Shown here: positions 8,830 to 53,781 of the stretch, in pieces
Layout: the number at the start of each line of letters is the position of its first letter
Position numbering within the stretch: the stretch's first letter is position 1
DNA from: Kiritimatiellia bacterium
Lineage (GTDB): Bacteria; Verrucomicrobiota; Kiritimatiellia; RFP12; UBA1067
Length of the DNA: 64,000 nucleotides
Assembly: GCA_050949565.1 (NCBI GenBank)
Contig: JBMNFY010000015.1
Span: 68,722 to 132,721, forward strand
Direction: 5' to 3'
Program-made: the position numbers and the translations under genes
Notes under the pieces: model-generated
What the model was told of the DNA's origin: nothing
Databases searched by the model: none
Seen by the model: the letters and a program-made list of their open reading frames with translations, nothing else

Positions 8830-10230
8830 ATGAAAGGTCTTGCCACATTCCAGTGCGCCGCCGTTTTTCTGGCGGCCGCCGCTGCCGCCCTCCTGGTGTC
8901 CGGCGCGGACATCGTCAGCACGGCGGTCCCGCCGCCCGTCTCCGCCGACACCGAGAGATGCGTCCACCTCGCCGTGCCGCCGCTGGCCGGCAAGGACTTC
9001 ATCAAGGTCTCGATGTCTTTCAACGCCTCGCCGTCCAACAGCCTCGCGATCGCCTTCGGCGCGGACGCGGACGGCGACGGCCGGCTCTCGCTGCGCGAGC
9101 AGGCGGCCGGGCTGGGCTGGGACAACGGCGTCTGGTTCGTCCGGCGTCCGGGCGCGTCCGCATGGGAGCGGCTGGAGGAGGCGGGCGCGGCGGGGCCGCG
9201 CCTGCTGGAGGCCGTGCTGTGGCTGCGCTCCGCGACATCCGGCCCGCGCCTCGTCCTGTCGGTCGACGGGACGCCCGCCGCGTGCGGCGCGCGGGCGGCC
9301 GGCTGGGTGCCGCTCTCCGCGCTGGAGAACGGGACGGTGCGCGTGACCGCGCGCGGGCATGGCGTGGAGGGCGCGGGGCGCGTCGCCTTCGCCGGCGGCA
9401 GCACCGGCCCCGAGGTCGCCGTGACCGCGACATCGACCGGCGCCTTCCGGCTGGAGGCCGACATCAAGGGCCTCGTCATCACCCCGCCCCACGTCCGGCC
9501 TTTCTTCACCGGCACCGTCCTTCCCGCCGTCAACGTGCCCGTCACCGTCTGGATCGTGAGAGACGGAAACGGCGAAAACCCTGCCCGCGACGCCGCCGAG
9601 ATCCCCGGTCTTCTGACGGACGCCAACAAGATCCTGTGGCAGAACGGGCTGACACTGGTCCAGAGCGGGACGGTGCATTACGCCGACAATGCCGCATGGC
9701 TGAACCCGAGCAACACCACGCCGGCGGCCGTGCAGAACTTTGACGCCCTCATGGACTGCTCGTCGGGCACCGGCGGCGTGGAGCTTTATTTCGTGCGGAC
9801 GATCACGGGGGGAAACAGGAATCTTAATGGCATCAAACGAGACAAGGGCATTGCCATAGCCGCGATCGGCGATGCGAGCACGATCGCGCACGAGGTGCTG
9901 CACGCCTGCGGCCTCGTCGACATCTATCCCCAGATAACGGTTCTTCCGCAGGAGGATAAGGTCTCCATCCCGGACGTGTGCGCGCCGGAGATGCTGCCGT
10001 CCGACTGGTGCGGCGGTTATTACGAGCCGGGGCTGATGCAGAAGTTCGTGGTCGCCCGCCTGATCATGAGTCCGACGGGTTATGGGAACGTGCCGCTGCC
10101 CCGGGCCGATATCCCGTCAGGGAGTGTGTGGGGATATCGCAATTTCAGTACGACGGGCGATCCGGCCGATGAGTTGGAGTTGAGGAACGTCGGCCTGTCC
10201 GGCTGTCATCAGAATCCGGTCAGCGAATGA
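8830..10230 (+). CDS. Secreted protein with C-terminal zinc metallopeptidase (HExxHxxGxxD) module; full-length head of the cassette array
   Basis: GGAGG RBS; signal peptide; DADGDGRLS EF-hand-like motif; C-terminal VELYFV...TIAHEVLHACGLVDIY...DWCGGYY...RLIM. Confidence 0.75.
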   Translation: MKGLATFQCAAVFLAAAAAALLVSGADIVSTAVPPPVSADTERCVHLAVPPLAGKDFIKVSMSFNASPSNSLAIAFGADADGDGRLSLREQAAGLGWDNGVWFVRRPGASAWERLEEAGAAGPRLLEAVLWLRSATSGPRLVLSVDGTPAACGARAAGWVPLSALENGTVRVTARGHGVEGAGRVAFAGGSTGPEVAVTATSTGAFRLEADIKGLVITPPHVRPFFTGTVLPAVNVPVTVWIVRDGNGENPARDAAEIPGLLTDANKILWQNGLTLVQSGTVHYADNAAWLNPSNTTPAAVQNFDALMDCSSGTGGVELYFVRTITGGNRNLNGIKRDKGIAIAAIGDASTIAHEVLHACGLVDIYPQITVLPQEDKVSIPDVCAPEMLPSDWCGGYYEPGLMQKFVVARLIMSPTGYGNVPLPRADIPSGSVWGYRNFSTTGDPADELELRNVGLSGCHQNPVSE

Positions 10231-10240
10231 GGAGGAGAAC

Positions 10241-11218
10241 ATGAGAAAGGTACTGTTGTTTTATGTCGTGACCATCGCGTTGATGTCTGCGGCCCAAAAT
10301 CCGGGCGCAAGACCCTTCGACGACGAGGCCATACGCGACATGCTTGAAGGTTTTGCGATCATGGAGGCGGACAATGAGGGCGATCCCCACCAGCAGAATC
10401 TGCCGACCGTGGCGGACTGCTATCGGATGATGGAGAAGCGGTGCGAGGAAGCAGGTGTTGACAAGCGGCGCATCCTCGACGTAGCCAAGGAAGAGATAGA
10501 CAAGTGTGCCGCCTACGTGAAAAGCACCGGGCGGACGTCCATTGCCATCAATGCGGTGAGGTTGCTGGACCTCGTGGCGCACTCTGGTGACCGTTCGCTC
10601 CTGCCCTATCTGGAGGAAAAGAGCCTTGATCCTGAAACCCTCAAGTTCATCCGTTCTGCCGCTGCGGAGGTCTATGTCAATATCGCGAGTGTGGAGGAGT
10701 GCATTGAGTTCATGAGAAAAGCCTTTGGCATCAACGCTGATAAGGGGTTTTGGCGATCCAGGGTCACTCCTCTGTTCTTGGGAAAAATGGAGTCCGCGAT
10801 TGCAAACCGCTCTGTTTCTGATGAAACCGAAGAACGGCTTTTGTCGCTTCTTATGGCATATACGCAAATCACATCGTATGCAAGCGAAGCCTCATGGGTG
10901 GATGATTTTCTGGTCAAACACTGTTACGGCTACAGGATGAGCGAGCAACGCTTATCGCTATGGAGCAGGATATTGGACGAGGATAAAGAAAATGAGTTGA
11001 AGAGAAAAAACTACCTTCCAATTAGAGAGGCGATTGAGGCCATCCCCCCCCGAAAACGCACTGACCTGCGCAAGCGTTTTCCCGATCTGCCGCCGTTACC
11101 GGGTGACGCGCCCGCTAGAAGCCCCGTGAAGGTCGCTATCGCCGTCGTCGCGGGAATTGTCGCAGTGGTAGCGGCATGGCTCATCTTGCGGCGGAAAAAG
11201 GCGCATGAAGCGGCGTGA
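10241..11218 (+). CDS. Partner 1: signal peptide, helical domain, DLRKRFPDLPPLP motif, C-terminal TM and basic tail (putative immunity/inhibitor)
   Basis: GAGGAG RBS; paralogous to 52951-53781 and to the split gene 11693-52482. Confidence 0.75.
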   Translation: MRKVLLFYVVTIALMSAAQNPGARPFDDEAIRDMLEGFAIMEADNEGDPHQQNLPTVADCYRMMEKRCEEAGVDKRRILDVAKEEIDKCAAYVKSTGRTSIAINAVRLLDLVAHSGDRSLLPYLEEKSLDPETLKFIRSAAAEVYVNIASVEECIEFMRKAFGINADKGFWRSRVTPLFLGKMESAIANRSVSDETEERLLSLLMAYTQITSYASEASWVDDFLVKHCYGYRMSEQRLSLWSRILDEDKENELKRKNYLPIREAIEAIPPRKRTDLRKRFPDLPPLPGDAPARSPVKVAIAVVAGIVAVVAAWLILRRKKAHEAA

Positions 11219-11222
11219 CAGC

Positions 11223-11678
11223 ATGGGCAATGCGGTGGAGTTGTACTTTGTGAATACGCTTGAGGGAGGGGCGGTTGGAGGGGTACGTCGGCCGGAGGGC
11301 ATCGTCATCGCGGCCAACGGCGATGGTCAAACACTGGCGCACGAGGTGATGCACAACTGCGGGCTTGAGGACATCTACACGGTCGAGAATCCCAATGGGT
11401 CGGATCCCAACCCGGTCTCCGGGCCGGTCTCCGCAGAGCGCATTCCCGCCGACTGGGGCGGGGGCTACTATCCGCCGGGGCTGGCGCAGCGGAGCCTGAT
11501 CACGCGGCTCCTCATGCGTGGGGAACACTTCGGCCCCGAACCTTCGTTTTCGGGAAGCATATGCCTGCCGCGCGGCACCGTCTACGGGTGGCGGAACGCC
11601 GGGAGCGGCACCGTCAGAACGCTGGGCAATGCCAGGGTCGGCCAGAGTGCTATCCAGCGGAACCCCGGCAGCTATTAA
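11223..11678 (+). CDS. Orphan metallopeptidase C-terminal cassette 2
   Basis: MGNAVELYFV...TLAHEVMHNCGLEDIY...DWGGGYY...RLLM; homologous to the last ~150 aa of 8830-10230; no signal peptide and no obvious RBS. Confidence 0.75.
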   Translation: MGNAVELYFVNTLEGGAVGGVRRPEGIVIAANGDGQTLAHEVMHNCGLEDIYTVENPNGSDPNPVSGPVSAERIPADWGGGYYPPGLAQRSLITRLLMRGEHFGPEPSFSGSICLPRGTVYGWRNAGSGTVRTLGNARVGQSAIQRNPGSY

Positions 11679-11729
11679 CAAGGAGATTAGGTATGACGCT
11701 ACGAACACACAAGGTCTACGGTTTTATCT

Positions 11730-13171
11730 AAGGAGTTTCCCCAAAAAATCTGGTCATTCCAGAAAGACCAGTCCGAGCGGGTTTGATTCGGGGTCTGGCG
11801 GCTTGTAGCCGTACCATTTCCCGTGGCGCGTGAAGAGCCTCCCGAGGCCGTCGGCGACGGCGTAGTGGAGGAACTCGGCCACGCCGTAGATGCGCTTGGC
11901 GGCGTGGGTGATGTTGGTCGTCAGGATCTCGCAGCGCAGCCGTCCGGCCAGCCAGACGCAGTTGAAGTAGATGACGGCCAGCAGCAGAGCGACCATGTTT
12001 TTCAGGCGCCGGTACGTCAGGACCCGGATGTCCTCGAGGTTGTAGCTCTGCTTGACGAAGCGGATCGCGTCCTCGACGCGCCACCGCGTCAGATAGCCCT
12101 CGACGACCTGCCACAGGGACTTGCGCGACGTCGTCCCGGCCAGCGTGGTCAGCAGGAGCATCGGCCGCTCGCCGAACCCCTTCACCACGACCATGCGCAG
12201 GGGCTTGTCGGGCCTCTGCGGCAGGGCGACGGTCATGGCGCCGAACTCCAGCTTATAGCTTTTCACCCCGTCCCCCGTCTCCCTCGTGACGATCTCGATG
12301 TGCTTCATGGGGCAGGATGCCGCCAGTTCTTCGGCCAGCGCGGTCCGCCGGCCGTGGAGCAGGTTGCGGTTGCCCACGAGGCGCACGATGTAGTCCAGTT
12401 TGCGCCGGTCCAGGCCGTCGAACAGCCAGTCTCCGTCGCCTCCGCGGTCGATGACGTAGATGCCGCGCTTCTTCGCGCGGGAGCTGATCTGGTCGATGAC
12501 GCCGAGCACCTCGTCGTTCTGGCTGATGAAGCCCTCCGCCTCGCTCGACCACAGCCGCATGTGCAACGGCGTGATCCGGCGGCCGCCGCTCTCGCAGGCG
12601 ACCGCCAGGCAGGCGCTGTATCCGTTGCCGATCTCCCCCGTGCTCCCGTCCCGGACGCGGGCGAGATATTCCATCTTCTTCGCGTACAGCTTACGGATGT
12701 CGGTCGGGTCGATGACGATCAGCGTGTCCTGATGGACGTGACGCGAGCCCAGACGGGCGACAGCGTCGGAAATCCCCTGCTCGATGCCCTCGCTCCCGAG
12801 CATCCGGCTCAGCCTGTCCTCCAGTTTCTTCATCGATATCGGCTCGTCGAGCGCGCGGGCGATCCGGCTGAGCTTCACGTCCTGCGACGCCTGTATCCCG
12901 TAGACCATGTCGCCCACGAACTTGCCGAGCGGCTTGGAAAACCGGGGGGAAAGTTCCCCCAAAAAATTCTTGAGTTGCTCTCGCGCTTTGAACGCCGTTG
13001 CGCTATGATTCACGTCGGTTTTCCTTTCCGGTTTTTGGTTGAACCGCCATTTTGGCAGAACCGGCGGAGGAAAACCACTTTTTCACTTTCAGGCACGCCC
13101 GTCAGAGACGCATCCCCTTTGTTTTCAAGGACTTAGATATAATTGCCCCCGATTTTTTGGGGAAAGTCCTT
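11730..13171 (-). mobile_element. IS4-family insertion sequence
   Basis: Terminal IRs AAGGAGTTTCCCCAAAAAATC / GATTTTTTGGGGAAAGTCCTT (1 mismatch); 8-bp TSD TTTTATCT at 11722-11729 and 13172-13179. Confidence 0.92.
11754..13013 (-). CDS. IS4-family DDE transposase
   Basis: IDPTD, IDRGGD and the YREK signature YLTRWRVEDAIRFVKQ. Confidence 0.9.
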   Translation of the reverse strand: MNHSATAFKAREQLKNFLGELSPRFSKPLGKFVGDMVYGIQASQDVKLSRIARALDEPISMKKLEDRLSRMLGSEGIEQGISDAVARLGSRHVHQDTLIVIDPTDIRKLYAKKMEYLARVRDGSTGEIGNGYSACLAVACESGGRRITPLHMRLWSSEAEGFISQNDEVLGVIDQISSRAKKRGIYVIDRGGDGDWLFDGLDRRKLDYIVRLVGNRNLLHGRRTALAEELAASCPMKHIEIVTRETGDGVKSYKLEFGAMTVALPQRPDKPLRMVVVKGFGERPMLLLTTLAGTTSRKSLWQVVEGYLTRWRVEDAIRFVKQSYNLEDIRVLTYRRLKNMVALLLAVIYFNCVWLAGRLRCEILTTNITHAAKRIYGVAEFLHYAVADGLGRLFTRHGKWYGYKPPDPESNPLGLVFLE

Positions 13172-13405
13172 TTTTATCTGGATTTTCTTGCTCTCCCTCA
13201 TGTTCCCGTCGGGTGGGCTTTGCGGAGGACGCGAAGAGGTGCTCGCGAACGGCTGGACTCTTGACCTTTTGATCGAGCGGTTCAACCAGTGTCAAGAAAA
13301 GGCGATCGCCCACGATCTGGAGCACCCCCCGTCTAAAAACTGGGGGGGGGGGGACATATTTATGCAGGCTATTCGGTATGGTTGAAAAACTGGGCGACCG
13401 CGCAG

Positions 13406-13427
13406 TTTAGCAACGGGGTTGAGGAAA
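13406..13427 (+). repeat. Left-end putative transposase-binding site
   Basis: TTTAGCAACGGGGTTGAGGAAA; inverted near-copy at 51800-51820; degenerate copies near 13534-13554 and 51821-51841. Confidence 0.75.
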
Positions 13428-13569
13428 GGCTGAAAGAGGCTGAAAATGCCTGAAAAGGCCGGTTTTACGGGGTTTCTAGCGGGTGCTGGTGGCGTCTCGA
13501 CGCGGCGAGGGAAAACACCTTGAAAAACAACGGTTTGTCAATGGTTTGAGGAAACCTGTAGGGTAATTG

Positions 13570-13614
13570 AAAAGCCCCCGCGCGACCTTTGCAATGAGGT
13601 TGCACGGGGGCTTT
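13570..13614 (-). terminator. Rho-independent terminator of the early operon
   Basis: Hairpin AAAGCCCCCG...CGGGGGCTTT just downstream of the last early gene, with a U-run on the minus strand. Confidence 0.7.
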
Positions 13615-13634
13615 GGTGGGTGTTCTCGCGCCGA

Positions 13635-14288: not shown

Positions 14289-14291
14289 GAC

Positions 14292-15353
14292 TTACTCCTT
14301 TGTTTGTGAGAGGCGTTGGATGACGTCGTAGGCGACGACAAAGTGATCCCAACTCATTTCCTTTTTCTGCTTTGCCGCCAGATTACTGGCTGACTGCAAA
14401 AACTTGCAGAACTGACCGAGGCCAGATTGTTTGAGCATAGTGGCGATGATCTCGGCGGCATCACCGTCTGGAGGCGGCAAGCCGAACGCGGCGGCAAACC
14501 TGTTGATGTCGCTTTTCGGCGGGGTTGCTGGCAACTGTAGACGGATGATGCCTCGGCGGCGAAACTGCTCCAGAATGAGTGCGAGCTTGCCGGTCTCGAT
14601 CTCATCGCGAAACACCCGTGTGCCGCAAAACACGATGCCGCAACCGGTGCGGTCGTATAGCTCGCGCAACCACTCTATGATGCGCACCGCGGTCGCGTTG
14701 CTACTACTGATCAGCGGCTGGTGCATTTCATCAAAGATCAGCAGCATCTGATCGCTGATTGAGTCGAACACGCGTGTTCGTATCTCGCTCGATGACGCTT
14801 TCGCAGATATGTAGCAGGCTTTCGCGACCTCGCGCTGAATCTGCCAAAACGTCGGTGCTGCTGGCATGCGGATGTACTTGGTTTGACCGTGATTGTTGCG
14901 CCGCGTGAATTCCATCAAACAGCTCGTCTTCCCTATCTGTGAGTCGCCGAAAATGAACGCGGGCAGTTGACCGACTAGCGCGTGGCGGCAGACCTGATCG
15001 ATCTTTTTCCACGTTGATGTTTCTACGAACCCGATCACCTTGCGGTTACCTCGCGCGTCTGCGAGTTTGTGGTAGCGTTGCACCGCCTCGATGAGGTTGT
15101 CGTATCGTGCGCCGTAGCGACCCATAAACAACCTGTAGGCCGTGCTCGCGTCTTTGTCGATGGCTTTTCCAGCATCCTCCAGTGTCATTGAGCGATCCAT
15201 GCAATACGAATAGAACCACCAGATTTCGGCTTTGTCTGCCTCTGTGATTTCTCCATCCTCCAGCAGTCGTGCGAGTGCCGTTTGTACTTGATCGCCCGGG
15301 ATGCTCATGCGCTGAGACTGGGCTACGATTTTATCAGTGTCTTCCTTGCTCAT
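14292..15353 (-). CDS. MuB-like AAA+ DNA transposition ATPase
   Basis: Walker A GDSQIGKT, Walker B LLIFDE, LRELYDRTGCGIVFCG, QFRRR arginine finger. Confidence 0.9.
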   Translation of the reverse strand: MSKEDTDKIVAQSQRMSIPGDQVQTALARLLEDGEITEADKAEIWWFYSYCMDRSMTLEDAGKAIDKDASTAYRLFMGRYGARYDNLIEAVQRYHKLADARGNRKVIGFVETSTWKKIDQVCRHALVGQLPAFIFGDSQIGKTSCLMEFTRRNNHGQTKYIRMPAAPTFWQIQREVAKACYISAKASSSEIRTRVFDSISDQMLLIFDEMHQPLISSSNATAVRIIEWLRELYDRTGCGIVFCGTRVFRDEIETGKLALILEQFRRRGIIRLQLPATPPKSDINRFAAAFGLPPPDGDAAEIIATMLKQSGLGQFCKFLQSASNLAAKQKKEMSWDHFVVAYDVIQRLSQTKE

Positions 15354-15376
15354 CTTACCTGTCCTTTCTGATGTGA

Positions 15377-17464
15377 TTACAAGAGGTCTGTCGTATCGGC
15401 GACGCTCAATGCATCGTCGTCTTGTTCCTCGCCGCCGGCGCAGAGGTCATCCAGCGTGACTCCCCGTGTGGCAGCGCGTCGCTCGGCGCTGACGGCTCGC
15501 TCGGCCTCGATACGCGCGGCCTCTGCCTGTCCGCCCTCGCGTAGTAGCGCGGCGTTTGTGCGCATGTCCGCGATCATTTCGCGGGCGCGTTTTACGCCGC
15601 GCCGTGCAACCGGAGCAATCGCCTCTGATAGCTCGCGTCGTGCAATACCGATCTCGCGTCCGACCGCGTCGAGATCAGCGCGATCAACGACATCCACGCG
15701 GTCACAGCGACCGACGTAGCGCCCCCACGTATCCGTGATGAAAATCCGTCGCGGATTAAATGGGTTGATCGTCCACAGGTACATCTCACCTTCTTTGAGT
15801 TGTACCTTTTCGCCTTCAGGCCCGACACATGTCGAGAGGCGGTAAATCTGTGGCCGACCGCTTTCGATGTCCTGATCGACGAACACCACCTCGGCGACAG
15901 CCGGACACGGCCGGGCCTGAGCGAGGTCATCGCCGCAGATCATGGTCACGGCCCAATCTGGCAAACGCACCAGATCGCGCTGCCCTTCCTCCCAAACCCG
16001 CGCCCGTGACTTTCGGGCGACCTGTGTGTTTCCGGGCATTGCCACGAGCGGTGCGAGACGATCTTGCACCTCATGCGGAAGCGCGAGAAACTCACACTCG
16101 CTGTGCCAGAGATCGGCGGGGTGGACGCGCCACTGCCGCTCAGTTCGATTGTGCCATCCCTCTAACGTGTGGTCACTGCTCCACGCGATCTGCGCATAGA
16201 CCTCATGCACCACGTCGAAAAACGTTGTCCAGTCCAACACCGGAAAGCGCATGCGTTCGGCGAGTTCTGGCGGTAGCGTACAAGATGCGGCGAGCATCTT
16301 GTCCACGACCTTGCACAACGCCTCGTGGTCTTCCGGCTTGTCCAAACGCGCATTGCTGCCGGTGTAGCCCGGCAACGCATCGAGCCGGTTCTGCGCGAGG
16401 TTGTGCCACGACTCAATGTGCGCTTTATGATCGGGATTGCCTTTCGTGTCGTAACCCCACTTGCCGAGCGGGATTTGACGATCCACACCGGACGTGCTCA
16501 CCGTGATCTTGCCGTCGCTCAATTCGTGCAACACCTTTTTCAGGCGGTCGCGAATGGCCGCCGTACCACCCTCCACGAGTAGCAGACAACCGTCTTTGTG
16601 GTAGCCGATATTCGTGAGGACGTGCGCCACGAGGAACCGCATGTCGGCCTCGGTGATATTGCGCCGTTTCCCGTCTTCATCCTCCATGCGCGGCTTGAGC
16701 GCGAACGCGATTTTGTTGGCACTTGCAATGTCGATGCAAGCCAGTTCCAGCGGGCGCACGGCCTTGGGATAGCCACGGCACACGACCTTGCAGTTATGCC
16801 ACATGTCATCAAATTCGTACTGTTGCCCCGGTAGCAGATTCTCGCGCGTGGTGTGAACACGCGCGGAGAATTTCCGTGCGGCATGCGGCCCACGCCGTGC
16901 GGCGACGGTCTCGATCCGCTTCGGCTTGTGCCGCATCATATTCCAATACGACCAGCCCGGAGGCAACGGCATACCGGGCGGGCACTTCGGCGGCATGGGC
17001 TTCGAGCGTAGCTCAGGCAACGCCTGCCACACGCGCCTCCAGTCCACGTCGCCGATCATCTGCCCCGACTTGTAGTTTGCCGCCAGCTCGATGTAGGCGC
17101 TTTTCATCGAGCGCGGATGCTGGTCGCAATAGGTGCGCCACGCTTCGATCACGGCGGGCGTGATCCACTCAGCCTTGCCACCGCCGGTGGTCTTGGCCGC
17201 GTTCACCAGCGCCCGCCAGTCGCCGGTGTTTCGTAGCGCGTAGAATTTGCGCTCCAGTGATTTGAATGACCATCCCGGCTTGTGTCGGTTTCGCGTGGCC
17301 GCGTCTGCCAGCGCCGTGCGCGGACGTGGCGCGACAGCCGCAGTACGGAAAACCTCTAGGAGATCCAGCACCTCCCATTTCACCTCGTCGGGTAACTGAG
17401 CGAATTCGGCGGCGTCCCGCTCAGGGACGCACGCGCCTGCAATGAGTTGAGTTCCCGTCATCAT
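15377..17464 (-). CDS. MuA-like DDE transposase
   Basis: 695 aa directly upstream of MuB; PGQQYEFDDMWH first-Asp motif; GNPDHKAHIESWHN Glu motif. Confidence 0.8.
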   Translation of the reverse strand: MMTGTQLIAGACVPERDAAEFAQLPDEVKWEVLDLLEVFRTAAVAPRPRTALADAATRNRHKPGWSFKSLERKFYALRNTGDWRALVNAAKTTGGGKAEWITPAVIEAWRTYCDQHPRSMKSAYIELAANYKSGQMIGDVDWRRVWQALPELRSKPMPPKCPPGMPLPPGWSYWNMMRHKPKRIETVAARRGPHAARKFSARVHTTRENLLPGQQYEFDDMWHNCKVVCRGYPKAVRPLELACIDIASANKIAFALKPRMEDEDGKRRNITEADMRFLVAHVLTNIGYHKDGCLLLVEGGTAAIRDRLKKVLHELSDGKITVSTSGVDRQIPLGKWGYDTKGNPDHKAHIESWHNLAQNRLDALPGYTGSNARLDKPEDHEALCKVVDKMLAASCTLPPELAERMRFPVLDWTTFFDVVHEVYAQIAWSSDHTLEGWHNRTERQWRVHPADLWHSECEFLALPHEVQDRLAPLVAMPGNTQVARKSRARVWEEGQRDLVRLPDWAVTMICGDDLAQARPCPAVAEVVFVDQDIESGRPQIYRLSTCVGPEGEKVQLKEGEMYLWTINPFNPRRIFITDTWGRYVGRCDRVDVVDRADLDAVGREIGIARRELSEAIAPVARRGVKRAREMIADMRTNAALLREGGQAEAARIEAERAVSAERRAATRGVTLDDLCAGGEEQDDDALSVADTTDLL

Positions 17465-18375: not shown

Positions 18376-18389
18376 CCTTTTTGGTGTGG

Positions 18390-18722
18390 TTATCCCTGCA
18401 CGCTCAGTGCGAGCAGGTCAATCAATTCGTCGGAGGTCAACCGCGACCCCGACGCCGAAATCCGTTTACGCGCTTCCTCTGGAACCGTGTTGAGCGCATC
18501 CAGTAGCGCATCGCGCAGTGCCGTCATGTAGGCGGCATCCGCTCTGAACCTTTGTTGCTTCGCCGATCCACTGCGTTGATCCGCTGCGGCTTTGGCCAGC
18601 GCATCGGAAGCAAGCTGAGCTGTGAATAGAGATCGCTGTGCCGTCTGCACCGCTGCCTTGGCGAGTGCTTTGGCCGTTTCTTCCGGCCTCGCGGCCGGGT
18701 CTTTGCATGTCTGTTTTTTCAT
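18390..18722 (-). CDS. Hypothetical phage early protein
   Basis: ORF translationally coupled within the early operon. Confidence 0.6.
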   Translation of the reverse strand: MKKQTCKDPAARPEETAKALAKAAVQTAQRSLFTAQLASDALAKAAADQRSGSAKQQRFRADAAYMTALRDALLDALNTVPEEARKRISASGSRLTSDELIDLLALSVQG

Positions 18723-19105: not shown

Positions 19106-19106
19106 G

Positions 19107-23943: not shown

Positions 23944-24054
23944 GGGTGTGTGTCAGATTCGTGACGTGAAAATCAGATTGCGCTTGCGTGGCGCATGTGG
24001 ACGCGTTATATTTTGTAGCGGTTTAACTACAAACAATCTAACGAAAGGACACCT

Positions 24055-24378
24055 ATGGAACTTCCCCAGATATTCGCGGAAATCGCAGCCAGCATCCCGG
24101 CCAGGCGCGGCAGGCTCTTCGAGCAGTATTCGACCAGGACCGCCGCCGACGGGACGGTCCGGCGGACGGGGCCCTACTACGTGCTTACGCGGTCCGTCAA
24201 CGGCAGGACCGTCTCGGAGCGGGTCAAGGCCGAGGACGCGCCCCGCGTGCGGGAGGAGATCGAGCGCGGGGCGAGGCTCGCGGCGCTCTTCGAGAGGATA
24301 TGGGAGATGGCGGAGTGCGCGGCGCGGCAGGCCCGCGACCCTAAAAAAAAACAGGGCCGGACGGCACCCCGGCGCTAG
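24055..24378 (+). CDS. IS accessory ORF (DUF6788-like)
   Basis: GPYYVLTRSVNGRTVSERV; ends just after an A9 run. Confidence 0.65.
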   Translation: MELPQIFAEIAASIPARRGRLFEQYSTRTAADGTVRRTGPYYVLTRSVNGRTVSERVKAEDAPRVREEIERGARLAALFERIWEMAECAARQARDPKKKQGRTAPRR

Positions 24379-24467
24379 GGCGCATTGAGGCGGCCGCCCT
24401 CGATCTCGTCGGCGCCGCCGTCAAGGCCGAGGCCGACGCGCGGAGCGGAGCGCGGGACCTGAGCGAG

Positions 24468-25694
24468 GTGGAGGGCGACCTGCGCTCGGCGGCGCTGTCC
24501 TTCGCGGCGAAGGCGCTCGGGGCGCTCATGTCCGGCCCGCTCCAGCAGGCCGCGGGCGTGGACGCCCCGGCCGGCCGGCGCGGAACCAGGACCGAGACGG
24601 TGCTCACCAGCGTGGGGGACGTGCCCTACACGCGGGCATACGTCCCCGGCGGCGACCGGCCGTTCCCGGCCGACGAGGAACTGGGGCTGGTCTGCCGGTG
24701 CACGCCGTCCGCAGCGAAGCTCCTCTGCCACGAGGCCGCCCGCAGCCAGTCCTACCTGCAGGCCTCGGAGAGCCTCGCGCTTTCCGCCGGCATCTCGGTC
24801 TCCGCCAGCAGCATCCACCGGCTCGTGCGCGCCGTCGGCCCGGACATGGAGGCGTGGGCGCTCTCCCGCACGCCGTCGCCCGCGGAGCCGGGGCGCGACG
24901 TCATCGTCTGCCTCCAGATGGACATGACCGGCGTGCGGATGCTGAAGCGGTATCTCAAGGGCGCCAGGGGCAGGGGCGGGGGGGATCCCAAGGGCCGCCA
25001 GATCAAGTGCGGGACGCTCTTCCTGATGGAGCGGGACGCCGAGGGCCGGTACCGGCGGATAAGCGGCAGCGCCGTGCACGTGATCTCCTTCTGCGACCCC
25101 GTGTCGTTCTCCGACGCGCTGGAAAAGGCGCGGCAGAAGCTCGCGGCCCCCCACGGGGCCACGCTGGTCGTCGTCGCGGACGGCGCGGAGTGGATCTGGA
25201 ACATCGTCTCGGACCGCTTCAAGGAGGCGTTCAGCATCATCGACTTCTGGCACGCCGCCGACCGGCTCCACGACCTCTGCGAGTTCGCCCTGGGGAAGGG
25301 GGACGCGGCGCAGGCGCTCTTCAAGGAGTGGCGGAAGAAGATGAAGGTGTACGGGGTGGACTGCGTGATCCGCCACTTCGAGGGAATGGAGGGCTCCCGG
25401 AGGAAGCTCAAGGGCGTCGCCAAGCGCCTGGCGTACTTCAAGAGGTACCGCGGGCAGATGCAGTACCGCAGGTTCCGCCGCGAGGGATGGCCGATCGGTT
25501 CCGGCGCGGTCGAAGGCGCCTGCAAGTCGCTGATCAAGCAGCGCACGAACCTCTCGGGGCAGCGCTGGTCGCCCGACGGCGCGCTGGACGTGCTCTGGGC
25601 GCGGGCGCTGATCACCGACGGGCTCCATGACGAGTACTGGAAGGAAAAACGGAGCCGCGAGGGGAAGCGCAGAGAGCCCGTGTTCGCGGCGTGA
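24468..25694 (+). CDS. ISKra4-family DDE transposase (true start uncertain)
   Basis: ADGAEWIW, IIDFWHA, GWPIGSGAVEGACK, SGQRWS. Confidence 0.85.
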   Translation: MEGDLRSAALSFAAKALGALMSGPLQQAAGVDAPAGRRGTRTETVLTSVGDVPYTRAYVPGGDRPFPADEELGLVCRCTPSAAKLLCHEAARSQSYLQASESLALSAGISVSASSIHRLVRAVGPDMEAWALSRTPSPAEPGRDVIVCLQMDMTGVRMLKRYLKGARGRGGGDPKGRQIKCGTLFLMERDAEGRYRRISGSAVHVISFCDPVSFSDALEKARQKLAAPHGATLVVVADGAEWIWNIVSDRFKEAFSIIDFWHAADRLHDLCEFALGKGDAAQALFKEWRKKMKVYGVDCVIRHFEGMEGSRRKLKGVAKRLAYFKRYRGQMQYRRFRREGWPIGSGAVEGACKSLIKQRTNLSGQRWSPDGALDVLWARALITDGLHDEYWKEKRSREGKRREPVFAA

Positions 25695-25809
25695 CAGCGG
25701 AAACAGCGGAAACGATGTTACGAATCTGACACACACCCTTCATCATCCTTATCCTTTCCTTCGCATGATCTCGGTGCTATCATGCCGCCTGTCATGCGTT
25801 ACGGCGGGG

Positions 25810-44484: not shown

Positions 44485-44545
44485 CGTCCGAAACGCTCCC
44501 GTTTCCGCACGGGCCTCAGCTGCTACGGTCAAAGGGAAGTATACC

Positions 44546-47156: not shown

Positions 47157-47159
47157 ACC

Positions 47160-49085
47160 ATGGCGTGGCAATACTACATCTCCGGCGGCGGCGTGACCAG
47201 GGAACTCAAAGAAGCCAACGGGCACAGCCTCTCCATCTCGCGCCGCGCCGGCGCGGTCTCCACCGCGTCATGGATCATAGATTCGCAGCCCGAGGACGCG
47301 CCGCTCTGGCCCTTCGGAACAGCCGTCACCGTCTCCCGCGCGGACGGGCCGGAAACCGAGATACTGTTCCGCGGCACGATCACCAACGACCAGCCGTCCG
47401 CCGACCCCTCGGACGAGAGCACCCCCTACCAAGCGTCCGACGCGTGGTGGGACATGGACGGCGAGATCTACCGCCAGTCGCGCAAGATCACCTTGAGCGA
47501 CGGCACCACCGGAAACGCGCTCTACGGCCGCTCCCTCCTCGGCCGCGCCGCCGACGGCGAACGCATGAGCGCCGCCCAAATCATCAGCGCCGCGATCGAC
47601 TACGCCGCCGGCATCGGCATCAACATTCAAAAGGGCGCCATCGACGCGCCGGTCACACCGCCGTGGATAGAAACCACAGACAAAACGCTCTCCGAGATCA
47701 TCCGCCTCGCGCTGCTGTGGCAGCCCGACGCCGTCCCGTGGATCGACCACACCACATCCCCGCCCACGCTGCACGTCACGCGCCGCTCGGCAATGGAGCA
47801 AACGGAGCTCGATTTCGCCGGCCTCGGCCAGTGCCGCGTCCGCGCCTTCCCCGAGCAGCAGATCAGCGGCTGCGAGATCACCTACGAGCTGAGCAACCAG
47901 CACGGCCGCACCGTCGCCGTCGACTCCGCCGGCGACACCTCCGCCCTGCGCTGCGCGCGCTTCACGATCCCGCTCGAATTCGAGGCCGGCGCCGCCGCGC
48001 CCAGACAGGAGATCAAGACCGTCCCGCTTGGCGACTACACACAGCTCGGATGGTGGCAGCGCATATTCCCCTGGCTGCCCAACGACGCCGACATCACCGA
48101 GGTGATGATCATGCCGGCGCCACCGGAAGGGTTCACAAACATCCTCGTCGCAGGCACCATCACCGACTGGATGCGCGACGACCTCGACCTCTCAGCCAGC
48201 GAGCACACCGTCTCCTGCAAGGCCGGCATGGAAGTAGACGGCAAAAATTTCACCGAGAAAGAACTCAGCCGGAAATTCACGCTGACCAACGCCAGCAGCC
48301 GACGCTACGCCGGGCGCTTCAGCATGGGGTTCGCCGAGCCTGTCCCGACCGGCGTCGCCGATGCGTTTTACGCCGCCGCTTCGCAACTGCAATACGGCGG
48401 CAGCATCGTCATCGAAGAGGAGGAATGCGCCGGGGGCCGCGCGCTCATGGGCAAGGCCGTCAACGTCACCGGCGCGCGCGCCGCATGGGCGTCCATGAAA
48501 GCCGCCGTCGTCGGCGTCGACGAAGATTTCGACTCCGGCTCGACCACCGTCACGCTCGGCCCCGCCCGCCACCTCGCGCCGCAAGACATGATCGACCTCC
48601 TGCGCGCGTCCCGCTGGCGCCACAGCATGCAGCCGCAGAATCCGGATGACAACGCGGCATCCGGCGACGAAGGCCCCGCCGACCCGTTCGGCCCCGAGGA
48701 CAATCGGTCCGAGTCTCCCGGCAAGCTCTCCGCGATCACTTTGGAAACAGAAGACGCCACGTGCGCCGCCATTATTGACGCCGACGACCTCGAAGATGAC
48801 AACCCCGCAATGTTCCGAGAAATCGAATACACGGGGGCAGACGGCAAGACGACCCGCGCCATCTTCCTCGCCACAGAGCCGCAAGCTGACGAAGAGGAAG
48901 AAAACGAAGACCCCGACGGAGATGGCTCTGGTTCGTCAGACGACTGCTCTCACGACGGCCCGCCGGACGGCGGCGGCGGCGGCGGCGGCGGCACACCGGA
49001 AAATGAGCATGATGGCGGCCACCCCGGAAGCGAGGAACCCGACAGAGACGGCGGGCATCCCGGCAAGACCGGCCCGTGCTGGTAA
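47160..49085 (+). CDS. Tail tip/hub-like protein with an acidic Gly/His C-terminal tail
   Basis: Follows the tape measure; STTVTLGP hub-like motif. Confidence 0.5.
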   Translation: MAWQYYISGGGVTRELKEANGHSLSISRRAGAVSTASWIIDSQPEDAPLWPFGTAVTVSRADGPETEILFRGTITNDQPSADPSDESTPYQASDAWWDMDGEIYRQSRKITLSDGTTGNALYGRSLLGRAADGERMSAAQIISAAIDYAAGIGINIQKGAIDAPVTPPWIETTDKTLSEIIRLALLWQPDAVPWIDHTTSPPTLHVTRRSAMEQTELDFAGLGQCRVRAFPEQQISGCEITYELSNQHGRTVAVDSAGDTSALRCARFTIPLEFEAGAAAPRQEIKTVPLGDYTQLGWWQRIFPWLPNDADITEVMIMPAPPEGFTNILVAGTITDWMRDDLDLSASEHTVSCKAGMEVDGKNFTEKELSRKFTLTNASSRRYAGRFSMGFAEPVPTGVADAFYAAASQLQYGGSIVIEEEECAGGRALMGKAVNVTGARAAWASMKAAVVGVDEDFDSGSTTVTLGPARHLAPQDMIDLLRASRWRHSMQPQNPDDNAASGDEGPADPFGPEDNRSESPGKLSAITLETEDATCAAIIDADDLEDDNPAMFREIEYTGADGKTTRAIFLATEPQADEEEENEDPDGDGSGSSDDCSHDGPPDGGGGGGGGTPENEHDGGHPGSEEPDRDGGHPGKTGPCW

Positions 49086-49115
49086 TTTTTTGCAAGAAGA
49101 GAGGAGAAACGACCC

Positions 49116-51395
49116 ATGTCAACCGTACTACGAAACATTCCCCATGCCCGATTTATCAGGCAGGCACGCTCGCCGAAAATGGCGCTGGTGTCCACGCAAG
49201 CGGCGCTCGACCAGGCGATTGAATCGCTCAAAACCGCCCCGTGGCAACGCGCGAGGCCGGGACTGACCGTCACCATGCCGGCCAGCGACCCCACGCAGAC
49301 CGCATCGTCAGAAGCCTACGACGCTTACAAGTTTTCTGGCGACTGCATCCCGCAGAGCGGCGAGCAAGCCGCGTTTGTCGGCATGGTCGCGTACAGGTTC
49401 AAAATCCCGTCCGGTGCGCTCGGCAATACACCGGTCACGCAGGTGGAACCTACGACCAGCGTGCGCTTGTACGCCAATAAGTTTTTGAGTGCCGGACTGC
49501 GTATCGCCGCATTTACGAGCAATGATGCCGACCCTAACATGCTCGGCTCGTGGGAACACATGCGCGGCGAGGTTGCAGGAAGCGGCGTGGGGTTTGTTGC
49601 CGGCCTGTTTGCTAACGAAGACGCTGGCACCAAGCGCGCCTCGAACCAGAGCGCCATCGTCTGCCCGCTACCATCCGGCGCGCCAGCCGCGCAATATCTC
49701 TGGATCATCGTGCAGCTCGAGGATTGGGCAGAAATTAAATGGGAGTATTGGATCGAGGGGGCCGGATTTCTGGAAGCGGATACCCTCTCTCTCGTACTCT
49801 CGAAAGACGGCGTCGAGCTGGACGAAGAGGGCGAGGAGTTTGTCTTCCCCGTCGCGCCGCAGGACTTCCATGAGCCATCACGGGTGTATGGTTTGGCGGC
49901 GTTGCCCCATGCTGGATTTGTCGGCCAGCTGTGGGGGGCATCAGGCGCACAGTTCGGTCGTGCGGTTGTGGATATTGCACGGATCGACTACTACAAAATC
50001 ATGGTGCTGGATGCCTTCGGCCACCTCAGCGTCTTCGACATCAACACACAAAAATACACTGAGCCGGACAGCCGCTTCATTCGCGATGATGCGAGGCCGG
50101 TCAAGGTCTGGGGTGAGATGGGAATCGACAACACCTTCGCCGTGCTGGTGCTCTACGACGATGGCAGCGTGCGCGCGAGAAAAAACAACTACACCGAATT
50201 TGCTGCAACCGCCGCATCACTCTCCGGCGTGGTTGACGTAGCCACGGATGGATGCAACGTGATCGTCAAGCTATCCAACGGCGAATATCAATCATTCAGC
50301 TATAATTCCCCCAGCTTGACTGCGGCGTTCTCATTCGCACCAACCTCGCCCGTCATCAAGGCCAGTATCTTTTCGGTCAATGAATCCACCTGGGTGGCGT
50401 GGTTTTTATGCGCGGACGGGAAGGTGCTCGCGAGCACCGGAACAGTCCTGCGCGCGAACGTGGTAGACATCGCCGCCTGGCGCAGAGGTGCGGCGATGCT
50501 GTCGGCCACCGGCACGGTATACGCTCAGGGAAACGACGACATGGGGATCGTCACCGACTGCGCCTCCCTGTCCGGCATCACACGCATCTGGGCAGGTATC
50601 GACGGGCTGGCCGCGCTCGGTGCAGACGGCACACTGACCGTCCTCGGCCTCAATAAATCTGAGGCCATGTCAAACCGTCCGGGCATTGATTTCCGCAACG
50701 CGGCCAAGATCACATTCGGGGGCGAGGGCGAAGATCCGCCAGCCCATCTGCCGCAGGTGTTGCATGATTCCCCGCAACTCCGCTACCGCTGGGATCGCTC
50801 AGAGTACCTCTCGGCTCCCCGTGATTTTTCGGCGGACGGCATGTTCGACAGCGACGCCTCGCGCGATACGCTTGTGCGCCTCGCAGTGTCCGGCGACGGC
50901 ACTCTAAGGCACGCGCCCTACGCAGGCACCGGCGCATACGGGATCGCCGCCAACCCGCAGACCGGCGGGCTGAGCATCACGGCATCTGCCGTTGGACTGA
51001 GGTTCAGCCGCCGCGCGACCGATTTGACGCCGACCAAGTTGCACTACTCATTGCCCGCGTTGCCGCACGGAGCAGGATCGCAATCGCGCTACATCCGCGT
51101 GGTCGCGCTGCTCGATCAGCATCCTGCTCCCGTCAACCCCATCGCAACGGCGGATGGATTCCGCACTATCTGGAGCGGTGCCGTGCCCGAGGGCTACCAG
51201 ATACTGGGTTCAGAATACCTAGAGCACAAAGGGTTTGAAAACAGCCGCTTCCTGCCGATTGCGGCGACGCCGTTCCAAGGCGTGATCTGGCTCATAGTTT
51301 TGCCGGTTCACTTGGAATTGAGCGGAGATTCACTTGCATTCAATGTAGAGGGAGACGGGTTTGCCGCCCAGCATGTTTTCTTGTACCGCGACTAA
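49116..51395 (+). CDS. Probable receptor-binding/tail protein with RCC1-like repeats
   Basis: GVVDVA, NVVDIAA, GTVYAQG and ADGTLTVLG repeats; last late gene. Confidence 0.5.
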   Translation: MSTVLRNIPHARFIRQARSPKMALVSTQAALDQAIESLKTAPWQRARPGLTVTMPASDPTQTASSEAYDAYKFSGDCIPQSGEQAAFVGMVAYRFKIPSGALGNTPVTQVEPTTSVRLYANKFLSAGLRIAAFTSNDADPNMLGSWEHMRGEVAGSGVGFVAGLFANEDAGTKRASNQSAIVCPLPSGAPAAQYLWIIVQLEDWAEIKWEYWIEGAGFLEADTLSLVLSKDGVELDEEGEEFVFPVAPQDFHEPSRVYGLAALPHAGFVGQLWGASGAQFGRAVVDIARIDYYKIMVLDAFGHLSVFDINTQKYTEPDSRFIRDDARPVKVWGEMGIDNTFAVLVLYDDGSVRARKNNYTEFAATAASLSGVVDVATDGCNVIVKLSNGEYQSFSYNSPSLTAAFSFAPTSPVIKASIFSVNESTWVAWFLCADGKVLASTGTVLRANVVDIAAWRRGAAMLSATGTVYAQGNDDMGIVTDCASLSGITRIWAGIDGLAALGADGTLTVLGLNKSEAMSNRPGIDFRNAAKITFGGEGEDPPAHLPQVLHDSPQLRYRWDRSEYLSAPRDFSADGMFDSDASRDTLVRLAVSGDGTLRHAPYAGTGAYGIAANPQTGGLSITASAVGLRFSRRATDLTPTKLHYSLPALPHGAGSQSRYIRVVALLDQHPAPVNPIATADGFRTIWSGAVPEGYQILGSEYLEHKGFENSRFLPIAATPFQGVIWLIVLPVHLELSGDSLAFNVEGDGFAAQHVFLYRD

Positions 51396-51768
51396 AACCA
51401 CCAACCGGCAAGGCCTTAAAGATCCGCGAGGCAGACTCACGCTCGCCTTTGGCGAGCTGGCTTTCGAGACTGGACGCTCAATACACAAGAGCACCCCGGT
51501 GTCCGGCCGTGCCGCAGCGACGCAGAAGAGTTCGTAGGAGAATCCGCGCTCGACATCGTGAAGAGAATGATGGCCGTGCCCTTTGCCGCGCAACTCACCC
51601 CGCGCGAATTCATGGTTCAGACGTTACATCGCTTAAGCCCCCACAAAAGCCCTTCATTGCCCGACGACGACGCCAGCGCGGCCACGGCTTACATCGACCG
51701 CCTGATCGCGCTCGGCCTCGCAGAGCGCATTTAAGCGCCCGTTTCAATCCCCCTGCAAAAACAAATCA

Positions 51769-51802
51769 GGCCGCTTGCAAAAACCCTGCAAGCGGCCGTT
51801 TT
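51769..51802 (+). terminator. Hairpin terminator at the prophage right end
   Basis: GGCCGCTTGCA-AAAACCC-TGCAAGCGGCC-GTTTT. Confidence 0.65.
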
Positions 51803-52486
51803 CCTCAACCCTTTGCTAAATCTCCTCACCTTGCGTGAAAACCCTCGACCGGGAAGCCCTCCCGTTTTTGGAGGAGAAAAGCTTCATGACGAATGCTCCT
51901 AGTTTTATCCGTGGACGCGCTGCTGAAGTGTATGTCAAGATCGCGGATGTGGAGGAGTGCATTGAGTTCATGAGAAAAGCTTTTGGCGTCAACGATGACA
52001 AAGGTTTTTGGCGTTTTTCGGTCAGCCGTCAATTCTTGGCAAAAATCGGAGCCGCTTTCGACGCCGAAGAAACCTCGGATGCGATCAAACAACGCGCGTT
52101 GCTCATCCTTCTCGAACACATGCAAGCACCGGCAAATCCCTCGGAAGCTTCTAAAATTGACGAGTTTTTGGCTCAAAAGTGCGAGGGTTACCGTCAAAGC
52201 TGGCAACGAATGGATGTGGCCCAACGTTTTCTCGGAGGCGAAAATGAAAAGGTGGACAGGCACTACAGGCTTATCCATGAAAGTGTTACGCAATTTCCCC
52301 CGGAACAGCGCATCGATTTGCGTAAGCGTTTCCCCGATCTGCCGCCGTTGCCGGATGACGTGCCCGCTAGAGGCCGCATGAAAGTCGCGTTCGCCATCAT
52401 CGCGGGGTTTGTCGCGCTCGCGGTGTGCGCTGTAGCGGCGTGGCTCGCCGCTCGGCGGAGGAAGGTGCGCAAAGCGGCGTGACAGC

Positions 52487-52945
52487 ATGGACAACACGAA
52501 CAGCATGGGCAACGCGGTGGAACTCTACTTCGTGGACACGCTGAACAGAGAGACGACTGCCGGTGTGCGTCGCCCAAAGGGGATCGCGATCGCAAGCGGT
52601 GTAGGTAGCAGAACCATCGCGCACGAGGTGTTGCACGACTGCGGGCTTGAGGACATCTATATTGCGGATGACCAAGGGAATCCTCTTTTAGAACTGGTCG
52701 CGGAGCAGAGCATTCCCGCCGACTGGGGCGGCGGTTATTACAACCCGTGGGTGCTCCAGCACGGCCTGATCAAAAGGCTCGTCATGCGCTCGTTTCTCAC
52801 CTCGCAGGAAGACGCTGGCACCGATCTGCCATCGGGGGATGTCCGTGGGTGGCATCACGGTCCGGGTGGCGGCGGGACATCGCTCATTCTAGGCCCTGCC
52901 AAGGTGGGCCAGTCGTCTATTGTAAAAACCCCGGGAAGTCATTAA
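52487..52945 (+). CDS. Orphan metallopeptidase C-terminal cassette 3
   Basis: MDNTNSMGNAVELYFV...TIAHEVLHDCGLEDIY...DWGGGYY...RLVM. Confidence 0.75.
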   Translation: MDNTNSMGNAVELYFVDTLNRETTAGVRRPKGIAIASGVGSRTIAHEVLHDCGLEDIYIADDQGNPLLELVAEQSIPADWGGGYYNPWVLQHGLIKRLVMRSFLTSQEDAGTDLPSGDVRGWHHGPGGGGTSLILGPAKVGQSSIVKTPGSH

Positions 52946-52950
52946 GGAGG

Positions 52951-53781
52951 ATGAAAATGAATGCACGTCAAATATCGTGCTACCTGATTGTTTGCACGGT
53001 CATTCTTTACTCCGTGTCGGTTGCGGCCAGCGATTACGCGGATTATTCGCGCCGCCCGCTGTCTGAAATGTTTGAGGTATACAGTAGGTTTAAAGCGAAT
53101 TTTCGGGCCGGCTCGAATTACAATGTGGGTGCCGCATCCGCGCTGATTGTCGCTGTCGGGGAAAAGGGCGGGCGCGAAGTGCTTCCGTTTCTGGAGGAGG
53201 AAAGCCTCGATCCCGAAATGTCCAAGCGCATCCGCTCTGCCGCCGCGAGAGCGTACGTCAAAATTGCAGACGTGGAGGAGAGCTTGAATCTGATGCGAAA
53301 ACTTTATGATGACCCTTCCTTGAGGTCATGGTACGACTACGTGAACAAATTTTTCCTACAGAAGGTGAAGTCGGAGGAGAAATCTTTGACAGACGAGGTG
53401 AAAAGTGACGTCTGCACTCACTTGCTTACGATTGTTCAGAATACGGATAGCGCGGGAGATGCGCTTGATGCTGAGTTCTTTTTGCGCGACTTTCTCCCGG
53501 GATACACCAACAGCAAGCAACGGGCGACACTGGTCCGGTACGCCAACACCGGCAACGAGTACATGACGAACAACTTCAACCCCATCAAGGCGCACTTCGA
53601 CAAAATCCCTCCAAAACAGCGCACTGACCTGCGCAAGCGTTTTCCCGATCTGCCGCCGTTACCGGGTGACGTGCCCGCTAGAAGCCCCGTGAAAGTCGCG
53701 TTCGCCATCATCGCGGGGATTGTCGCAGTGGTAGCGGCGTGGCTCGTCTTGCGGCGGAGAAAGGCGCATGAAGCGGCGTGA
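52951..53781 (+). CDS. Partner 3 (signal peptide, helical domain, DLRKRFPDLPPLP, TM, basic tail)
   Basis: AAGGAGG RBS; LPFLEEESLDPE...IRSAAA.YV.IA shared with partner 1; 3' end nearly identical to partner 1 at the DNA level. Confidence 0.8.
   Translation: MKMNARQISCYLIVCTVILYSVSVAASDYADYSRRPLSEMFEVYSRFKANFRAGSNYNVGAASALIVAVGEKGGREVLPFLEEESLDPEMSKRIRSAAARAYVKIADVEESLNLMRKLYDDPSLRSWYDYVNKFFLQKVKSEEKSLTDEVKSDVCTHLLTIVQNTDSAGDALDAEFFLRDFLPGYTNSKQRATLVRYANTGNEYMTNNFNPIKAHFDKIPPKQRTDLRKRFPDLPPLPGDVPARSPVKVAFAIIAGIVAVVAAWLVLRRRKAHEAA

Follow-up and report, generated by a model that had tools for sequence, protein, structure and literature searches.

We identified three homologous modules with an HExxHxxGxxD motif in a 64,000-nucleotide stretch of DNA (hereafter the window) from an uncultured Kiritimatiellia bacterium of a digester (assembly GCA_050949565.1, contig JBMNFY010000015.1, positions 68,722 to 132,721 of the forward strand). 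Each module is followed by a divergent, exported, C-terminally anchored partner protein, an arrangement that had been proposed in a sequence-only reading of the window and with which the open reading frames (ORFs) and our alignments agree. The feature is real and not a product of chance. With a probability of roughly 0.6, it is a decayed copy of a multi-copy polymorphic effector/immunity-type cassette system that is intact on other contigs of the genome. The case is built on observed sequence relationships, fold, conserved linkage, breakpoints and selection signatures. The sequence-only reading had likewise described a polymorphic array of protease effectors with cognate inhibitors; the fold, the predicted binding, the linkage and the divergence of the tips support that description, while its choice of head protein and of the VELYFV motif as border did not hold up.

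As we picture it, an intact locus would encode a small secreted protein, an exported head protein of ~1300 aa and a partner, in that order. The C-terminal ~235 aa of the head would be a zinc endopeptidase of metzincin type, with the HExxHxxGxxD motif and an invariant Met, and the partner would be a periplasm-facing alpha-solenoid, tail-anchored in the inner membrane. Cassettes without a ribosome binding site (RBS), each consisting of a 5'-truncated protease module and its own partner, may come next; we call such C-terminal (CT) modules orphans. The partner would cover the active-site cleft and block the protease of its own type, shielding the producer and its kin, while silent cassettes would replace the tip of the head by homologous recombination. 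The targets would probably be envelope or extracellular proteins of competitors.

The array at 1.11 Mb on contig C17 has this layout. In order, it contains the small gene, a gene for a 1310-aa head with a type II tip, partner A, a short orphan (type II-like), partner B, a long orphan (type I), partner C, a short orphan (type IV), partner D and a stub that ends after VELYFVRTT. The small gene (1110519-1111340) and the 1310-aa head (1106586-1110518) are in the same frame with a single stop codon between them, and the head has a GTG start and a GGGGGA site just past the stop codon of the small gene. The window segment comprising the first module gene (P0001), partner 1 and the orphan CT2 is collinear with the distal part of this array, with 87.8% identity across 2.2 kb. 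In the whole assembly P0001 has 27 matches and partner 1 has 14. The module is present in 19 open frames, 13 of which have the complete domain, mostly at the C-terminus of proteins of 913-1381 aa, and an exported protein directly follows every one of these 13 genes. The close subfamily is paired with the HEAT-like, tail-anchored partner. More distant metzincin-tip proteins of 913-966 aa are directly followed by a second exported family (~440 aa, ending in DIVDPKWE), sometimes as tandem pairs (C13:8381-11017, C10:49211-51886, C1:13378-14709 and C17:93344-96052), which looks like an alternative partner family. At C17:1935231-1948560 there is a ~6.9-kb tandem duplication of a locus with a small gene, a 1289-aa head and two partner-like genes, the copies having identical scores.

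The window's own P0001 gene (8830-10230, plus strand, with an alternative start at 8803) encodes 475 aa with a signal-like N-terminal segment, and the sequence-only reading had taken it for the full-length protein of the system. It is instead a composite. Its 5' part (8830-9376) comes from the small secreted-protein gene and encodes a signal peptide and ~190 aa; the copy at C17:1110566-1111166 is 97.8% identical to window 8776-9376. Its 3' part (9366-10230) comes from a head and encodes the last ~290 aa, a partial Ig-like piece and a complete metzincin-like domain; from 9366 onward the window matches the 3' end of the gene for a 1296-aa head on contig C2 at 96.4% identity. The two matches share 11 nt of the window, at GVEGAG. 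Because they abut with this overlap, P0001 is, to judge from its sequence, an in-frame microhomology deletion that fused the small gene to the 3' end of the head. It eliminated the final 15 codons of the small gene together with some 1000 head codons, which would account for the loss of most of the window head and its fusion to the gene upstream. We rejected the small domain plus CT as a natural architecture, the small domain being absent from all 147 database representatives of the module. We compared metagenome and metatranscriptome contigs from four runs over window positions 8600-13600, where 32 of 371 pieces were listed. None of those listed bridges the fusion junction at 9366-9376, and none contains a joint linking P0001 to CT2, although the contigs are too fragmented for absence to be judged in either case. 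For annotation, the 475-aa P0001 is unsuitable as an archetype of the family.

When aligned, the three window modules have 49 invariant columns, including HE..H.CGL.DIY, DW.GGYY and RL.M, the motifs that had been reported as kept in both orphans. In a search of their own genome the two orphans match P0001 far beyond chance (E 5e-27 and 1.5e-20). Among 73 aligned sequences, H176, E177, H180, D186 and M235 are invariant, and the HExxHxxGxx(H/D) consensus is present, with Gly as the majority residue at the xxG position. The invariant M235 lies ~50 residues downstream of the zinc motif, and the third ligand position is occupied by Asp. Asp as third zinc ligand is the snapalysin pattern. An AlphaFold 2 model of the 288-aa C-terminal region of P0001 had a mean predicted local distance difference test (pLDDT) score of 92.4 and a predicted template modelling (pTM) score of 0.90. 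Foldseek comparison of this model with the PDB returned 14 matches at E<=0.001, all of them PAPP-A/PAPP-A2, ADAM-8 or ulilysin chains, and weaker matches to fragilysin and mirolysin; target-normalised TM scores reached 0.55, and sequence identity to the solved structures was 10-18%. A profile search with the module also matched snake-venom adamalysins weakly (E 7.5e-4). On the modelled fold, then, the module is a metzincin with Asp as third ligand, as the HExxHxxGxxD motif and downstream Met had suggested.

In the window the catalytic domain occupies 9520-10227 (plus strand), with the VELYFV strand at 9778-9795 and HEVLH at 9889-9903; P0001 contains HEVLHACGLVDIY in addition to VELYFV. In the model the catalytic domain starts at about residue 56 (VPVTVWIVR), followed by helix A (77-94), the VELYFV strand (139-144) and the HExxH helix (171-181). 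No Pfam family matched P0001, CT2 or CT3 at E<=0.1. Their sole NCBIfam match was M6dom (E 0.074), nothing scoring above the curated cut-offs, and one paralog matched Reprolysin_3 below the family cut-off (E 0.0094). Database relatives of the module comprise 372 representatives of clusters at 50% (E<=0.001), all unnamed or hypothetical.

Partner 1 (10241-11218, plus strand) has a hydrophobic N-terminus, a C-terminal transmembrane (TM) segment with a basic RRKK tail, and the Shine-Dalgarno (SD) sequence GAGGAGGAG. Partner 3 (plus strand) starts at an ATG at 52951 or 52957, preceded by an AAGGAGG SD, and ends at 53781. The three window partners align with 82 invariant columns, which are concentrated in the last ~60 residues. 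Partner 3 is a mosaic, its 5' third resembling C17 partners A and B and its last 170 nt being 93.5% identical to partner 1, against ~46% identity between partners 1 and 3 over the whole protein; the 3' ends of the partner genes thus appear to have been homogenised. The partners have no Pfam or NCBIfam family, with HEAT_2 and MHYT matching only below their cut-offs, and a sequence-profile search of the PDB gave nothing meaningful. The partner was modelled as a 14-helix, HEAT-like alpha-solenoid plus a TM helix (pLDDT 83). Foldseek found nothing at E<=0.001 for this model, generic helical repeats being the only matches, and no specific structural relative. Partner relatives in public data form 175 clusters at 90% identity, all unnamed or hypothetical. 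In one database representative, the 603-aa protein P0129, a metzincin module (55-300) and a partner-like region (445-567) occur in a single chain.

Co-folding of the P0001 domain with the ectodomain of partner 1, a check that the sequence-only reading had called for, gave a complex score of 0.85, against 0.00 for the best of three controls. In a benchmark a score of 0.85 was reached by 116 of 157 solved complexes and by 2 of 215 mismatched pairs. The runs agree on at least 81% of contacts, and the pLDDT of the partner is at least 89. In these models partner 1 is predicted to cap the active-site cleft of the P0001 domain, the interface covering zinc-site residues 176-177, 180 and 185-186 and the variable loop after VELYFV. 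Of the interface residues listed, 45 out of 58 fall in the portion that is carried by short orphans.

Both window orphans belong to the short class. CT2 (11205-11678, plus strand, type IV) begins midway through the catalytic domain; its ATG overlaps the stop codon of partner 1, a second ATG is found at 11223, and it has no SD. CT3 (52487-52945, plus strand, type II) shares 91% identity with the tip of the intact C17 head of 1310 aa. As had been noted, both start at the point matching VELYFV, their 5' ends being the residues aligned to MDCSSGTGGVELYFV. The short class lacks the first strand, helix A, a further helix and the signal peptide, and encodes the C-terminal ~60% of the metzincin domain. 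Long orphans start at PAVNVPV and therefore carry the whole catalytic domain. All junction classes share the leader TGA-CAGC-ATG-G(G/A)C, and in metagenome records this leader is joined to the helix A region of a P0001-like module. Orphan junctions are concentrated in conserved islands, at profile positions ~49-50, ~76-93 and ~121-131. VELYFV is consequently not the system-wide border that the sequence-only reading had made of it: it lies inside the catalytic domain, on a strand at 139-144 of 288 residues, and other junctions are found at the start of the domain, at helix A and further 3'.

The orphan frames bear signatures of selection. CT2 and the orphan at C17:1102257-1102763 are 82% identical in amino acid sequence with a ratio of nonsynonymous to synonymous divergence (dN/dS) of 0.41, and the orphan-orphan dN/dS values are 0.41 and 0.21, at dS 0.29 and 0.64; for pairs of partners they are 0.22-0.45. 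There are no internal stops in the five distinct orphan frames of the genome or in the contig C14 copy of CT3, as taken from a list of stop-to-stop frames. Such values below 1 would also be expected if short orphans were translated by termination-reinitiation at TGA-CAGC-ATG into separate cytoplasmic proteins, for instance regulators or decoys. The ATG does lie 4 nt past the partner stop in all junction classes, and a contig from an RNA library (run X15) matches 11270-11575 perfectly, such libraries being able to contain DNA. The short orphans, however, would yield a domain without its first strand and two helices and with no signal peptide; AGGAG-type SD sequences precede all seven partner starts and none of the four candidate orphan ATGs, in line with the earlier remark that the orphans lack a clear RBS; and the leader ATG of one long orphan is not in the reading frame of the module. 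We consider this explanation hardly credible.

The tips of the heads differ far more than their bodies. The heads C17_1310, C2_1296 and C17_1381 are 95-100% identical over ~800 aa and then 20-50% identical in the last ~250 aa; at the DNA level they are 90-100% identical up to the break. C17_1381 diverges exactly at PAVNVPVTVW, where the long orphans begin. Between C17_1310 and C2_1296 identity is lost in two stages, the later of which falls immediately ahead of MDSxxS, upstream of VELYFV, at the point where the short orphans begin. Tip types are shared between heads and orphans: type I occurs in the C2 head, the C17 long orphan, P0001 and, in a sister genome, at the start of a contig; type II in the C17_1310 head and in short orphans including CT3; and type IV in a short orphan here and in a long orphan of a sister genome. 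In the cassette system that we propose, the upstream homology arm for exchange would be the near-identical head body or conserved islands within the protease domain, and the downstream arm the strongly conserved 3' end of the partner gene together with the TGA-CAGC-ATG leader. A long cassette would supply the entire catalytic domain, and a short one the part from the VELYFV strand onward, which includes the active-site helix, the Met region and most of the surface that contacts the partner. As short cassettes hold only this part, a swap would rebuild a chimeric catalytic domain. We propose tentatively, and with less confidence than the cassette system as such, that exchange occurs inside the catalytic domain at the islands VPVTVWIVR, IADANKILWQ and VELYFV, that it produces chimeric proteases together with a switch to the matching inhibitor, so that diversity would arise by sub-domain shuffling within one fold, and that delivery does not involve the known contact-dependent secretion machines.

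Silent, RBS-less cassettes behind an expressed head, and recombination arms as well conserved as the partner 3' ends in proteins otherwise so divergent, could also serve variation of a surface-exposed tip to escape phages, predators or the inhibitors of competitors, with the partner acting as chaperone or anchor. That all tips have one fold would fit this too. The sequence-only reading had offered antigenic variation as an alternative, and it gained nothing from the tests that we ran. Each cassette brings its own co-varying partner, which pure antigenic variation would not need; the partner is predicted to lie over the catalytic cleft, including the zinc ligands; and the catalytic residues are invariant, so enzyme activity is what is kept. 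Surface variation is on these grounds very unlikely as the explanation.

The orphans could instead be leftovers of duplication and deletion among housekeeping secreted proteases that serve scavenging or surface processing, the partner guarding the producer's periplasm during export as in serralysin/Inh pairs. We regard this as rather unlikely, though it is the main rival and would accommodate scattered breakpoints, short C-terminal remnants and stubs. It would also be in keeping with a metzincin fold adjoining an exported predicted binder, with the damage to the window and C2 copies (deletion fusion, frameshift, insertion sequence and prophage), with secretion-system or toxin Pfam domains not being found, and with a polymer-degrading organism, as the context of a GH2 gene upstream suggests. 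The selection and breakpoint data argue against debris: orphan frames stay intact at dS up to 0.64 with dN/dS of 0.21-0.41, and conserved head bodies give way to divergent tips with breaks at the orphan 5' ends. Heads and orphans share tip types, and the arrays recur in other genomes. The predicted interface positions are, moreover, more variable than the rest, with a mean entropy of 1.94 bits at 55 positions against 1.50 bits at 177, in figures that pool positions irrespective of solvent exposure.

That pooling is one of several points that weigh against the cassette system. From the observations above we infer inhibition, toxicity, target, export route and actual recombination. Metzincin/inhibitor gene pairs occur outside conflict systems too, and the complex is a model of a single cognate pair, the P0001 domain with partner 1. 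CT identity and partner identity are correlated (r 0.81, Mantel p 0.0005, 12 pairs, excluding L055, one duplicate locus and pairs whose partner match was incomplete), which could be expected for any co-duplicated linked neighbours. CT3 is an exception to strict pairing: it shares 91% identity with the C17 head tip, but the partners of the two share only 53%. Orphan breakpoints also fall at profile positions ~194-208 and 6, and some orphan pieces of 40-60 residues resemble debris. The sequence-only reading had held that breakpoints scattered at random, as in a decaying tandem duplication, would speak against a cassette system; such scatter was found in part, in some plain remnants, alongside the clustering at conserved islands. 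The window copy is degenerate, with its deletion fusion, insertion sequence, frameshift and prophage, and the partner gene of the C2 head is frameshifted. In five heads TSP3_bac was the sole Pfam match and no recognised trafficking or secretion domain was found, nor was a type VI secretion system (T6SS) sheath gene (VipB/TssC) in the genome, which is 92% complete. Export would be by Sec, possibly plus a secretin pathway; the genome holds five secretin loci, and the N-terminal hydrophobic segments of the heads were recognised from sequence alone.

The linkage of CT and partner, whose conservation the sequence-only reading had proposed to check, extends beyond this genome. In other genomes CT is followed by a partner in 11 distinct loci and a partner by a 5'-truncated CT in seven, in a scan of 24 locus ids of which 21 are distinct; these loci are in metagenome-assembled genomes (MAGs) named as Kiritimatiellia and other members of the Planctomycetota-Verrucomicrobiota-Chlamydiota (PVC) group. 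The module was present in 13 of 40 close relatives. A partner-profile search of genome contigs found 12 loci, mostly on short MAG contigs, and the partner family was absent from all 250 other genomes in an even sample of phyla (E<=1e-5), so a wide distribution cannot be demonstrated from genomes. In the ESM Atlas the head body had no usable match and the small protein matched unnamed clusters only.

The remainder of the window array is interrupted. The first 12 codons of partner 2 (11693-11729, plus strand) follow an AAGGAG SD and are separated from its middle piece (13173-13404, plus strand) by an IS4/IS701-type insertion sequence (IS) at 11730-13171 on the minus strand. The transposase occupies 11754-13013, the IS is flanked by the 8-bp target duplication TTTTATCT, and at least 12 further full-length copies are present in the genome. 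Insertion was at codon 13 of partner 2, and removal of the IS restores the continuity of the gene up to a run of 12 G at ~13335-13346, where the frame is lost. This stretch is one G shorter in a contig from metagenome run X5, and the frameshift may be a sequencing error or a slip.

A Mu-like transposable prophage follows at 13405-51833, its right end being between 51812 and 51833, with the imperfect inverted ends TTTAGCAA and GGGGTTGAGGAAA. It encodes a transposition protein (14292-15353), a DDE transposase (15377-17464), terminase, portal, protease, capsid and tape-measure proteins, the early genes being encoded on the minus strand and the late ones on the plus strand. Within it, the 1.8 kb at 23944-25738 are 99.9% identical to C17:358802-360597 and contain a 453-aa minus-strand ORF without a PHROG match; a second insertion element has probably inserted into the prophage here. 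The left host flank ends in MVEKLGDRA and the right flank begins with VKTLDREALPF, so that ~8 codons overlap and are homologous but non-identical (VEKLGDRA/VKTLDREA). We therefore rejected clean excision of the prophage, a target duplication also being absent, and the left and right pieces do not rejoin as one gene. The right-flank fragment, a 215-aa partner-gene 3' part (51834/51835-52482, plus strand), is probably from a different paralog than the left piece of partner 2, because the overlapping codons are non-identical. The sequence-only reading had expected the locus to read through once the IS and the prophage were removed; this holds for the IS, and fails at the 12-G frameshift and at the prophage flanks. 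C14:33683-45830 is a 98.6% identical, 12.2-kb copy of window 51834-64000 that ends exactly at the prophage junction; it reflects either a genuine segmental duplication or the presence of a second strain in the assembly. Immediately ahead of the array, at 5613-8552, is a gene for a 979-aa GH2-type glycoside hydrolase with a sialidase-like carbohydrate-binding module.

Compared with known systems, the module resembles the pappalysin/ulilysin and adamalysin/ADAM metzincins in its fold, its HExxHxxGxx(H/D) site and its conserved downstream Met, and differs from them in having Asp at the third ligand position, in its low sequence identity (10-18%) and in matching no Pfam or NCBIfam model. The serralysin AprA is a metzincin encoded beside an exported inhibitor, AprI/Inh, which fills the active-site cleft and protects the periplasm of the producer. 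AprI/Inh is a small beta-barrel, export is of type I, and the loci are single and are not known to be polymorphic or to have orphan cassettes. The present loci, by comparison, are polymorphic arrays and encode an alpha-solenoid as partner.

The layout of the polymorphic toxin systems CdiA/CdiI, Rhs/RhsI and MafB/MafI, with their orphan CT/immunity modules, is summarised in PMC4436062. Going by excerpts of that account, the present system has in common with them a large exported protein with a conserved body and a variable C-terminal tip, a gene for a binding partner immediately downstream (binding being predicted here), downstream cassettes of alternative tips that lack the trafficking part and have a partner each, a region of homology that permits recombination, and several loci per genome (PMC4436062). 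In contrast to contact-dependent growth inhibition (CDI) systems, Pfam comparison and inspection of five heads found no VENN or (Q/E)LYN border, filamentous haemagglutinin repeats or CdiB domains. Unlike in Rhs/YD-repeat toxins, the RHS repeat was not matched at E<=0.01 in the five heads and there is no PxxxxDPxGL-type border. Neither a DUF1020 border nor a Pfam trafficking domain was found in the heads. The system departs from polymorphic toxins in further respects: its tips are all of one enzyme fold, its junctions are located both at the beginning of the catalytic domain and within it, and an alpha-solenoid with a C-terminal tail anchor serves as partner.

A proven precedent for a metallopeptidase toxin of this sort is the C-terminal metallopeptidase of Pseudomonas aeruginosa VgrG2b, which, as described in excerpts of PMC6899460, is delivered by T6SS, acts in the periplasm and is neutralised through complex formation by the envelope-targeted PA0261. 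Both systems combine a zinc metallopeptidase with an envelope-targeted partner gene directly downstream, neutralisation being predicted in ours; VgrG2b, unlike the heads described here, is delivered as a fusion to the T6SS spike, and PA0261 is small and disulfide-bonded and not a helical repeat (PMC6899460). VgrG2b/PA0261 and the window modules had no Pfam matches in common, and no sequence relationship was seen between them. We found no paper on polymorphic toxins in Kiritimatiellae, and among publications on polymorphic toxins, metzincins and immunity, judged by title and abstract, none described such a system.

If our reading is correct, a protease/inhibitor family without a database model joins the polymorphic toxin repertoire, and polymorphic toxin systems extend to the Kiritimatiellia, a little-studied PVC lineage common in anaerobic digesters and wastewater. 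The loci would also offer a natural series of co-varying metzincin/inhibitor pairs, useful for the evolution of protease-inhibitor specificity, and a case of recombination borders within an enzyme domain. The system matches no Pfam or NCBIfam model, and its novel points relative to the systems above are tips of a single fold, junctions at and within the catalytic domain and a tail-anchored solenoid as partner.

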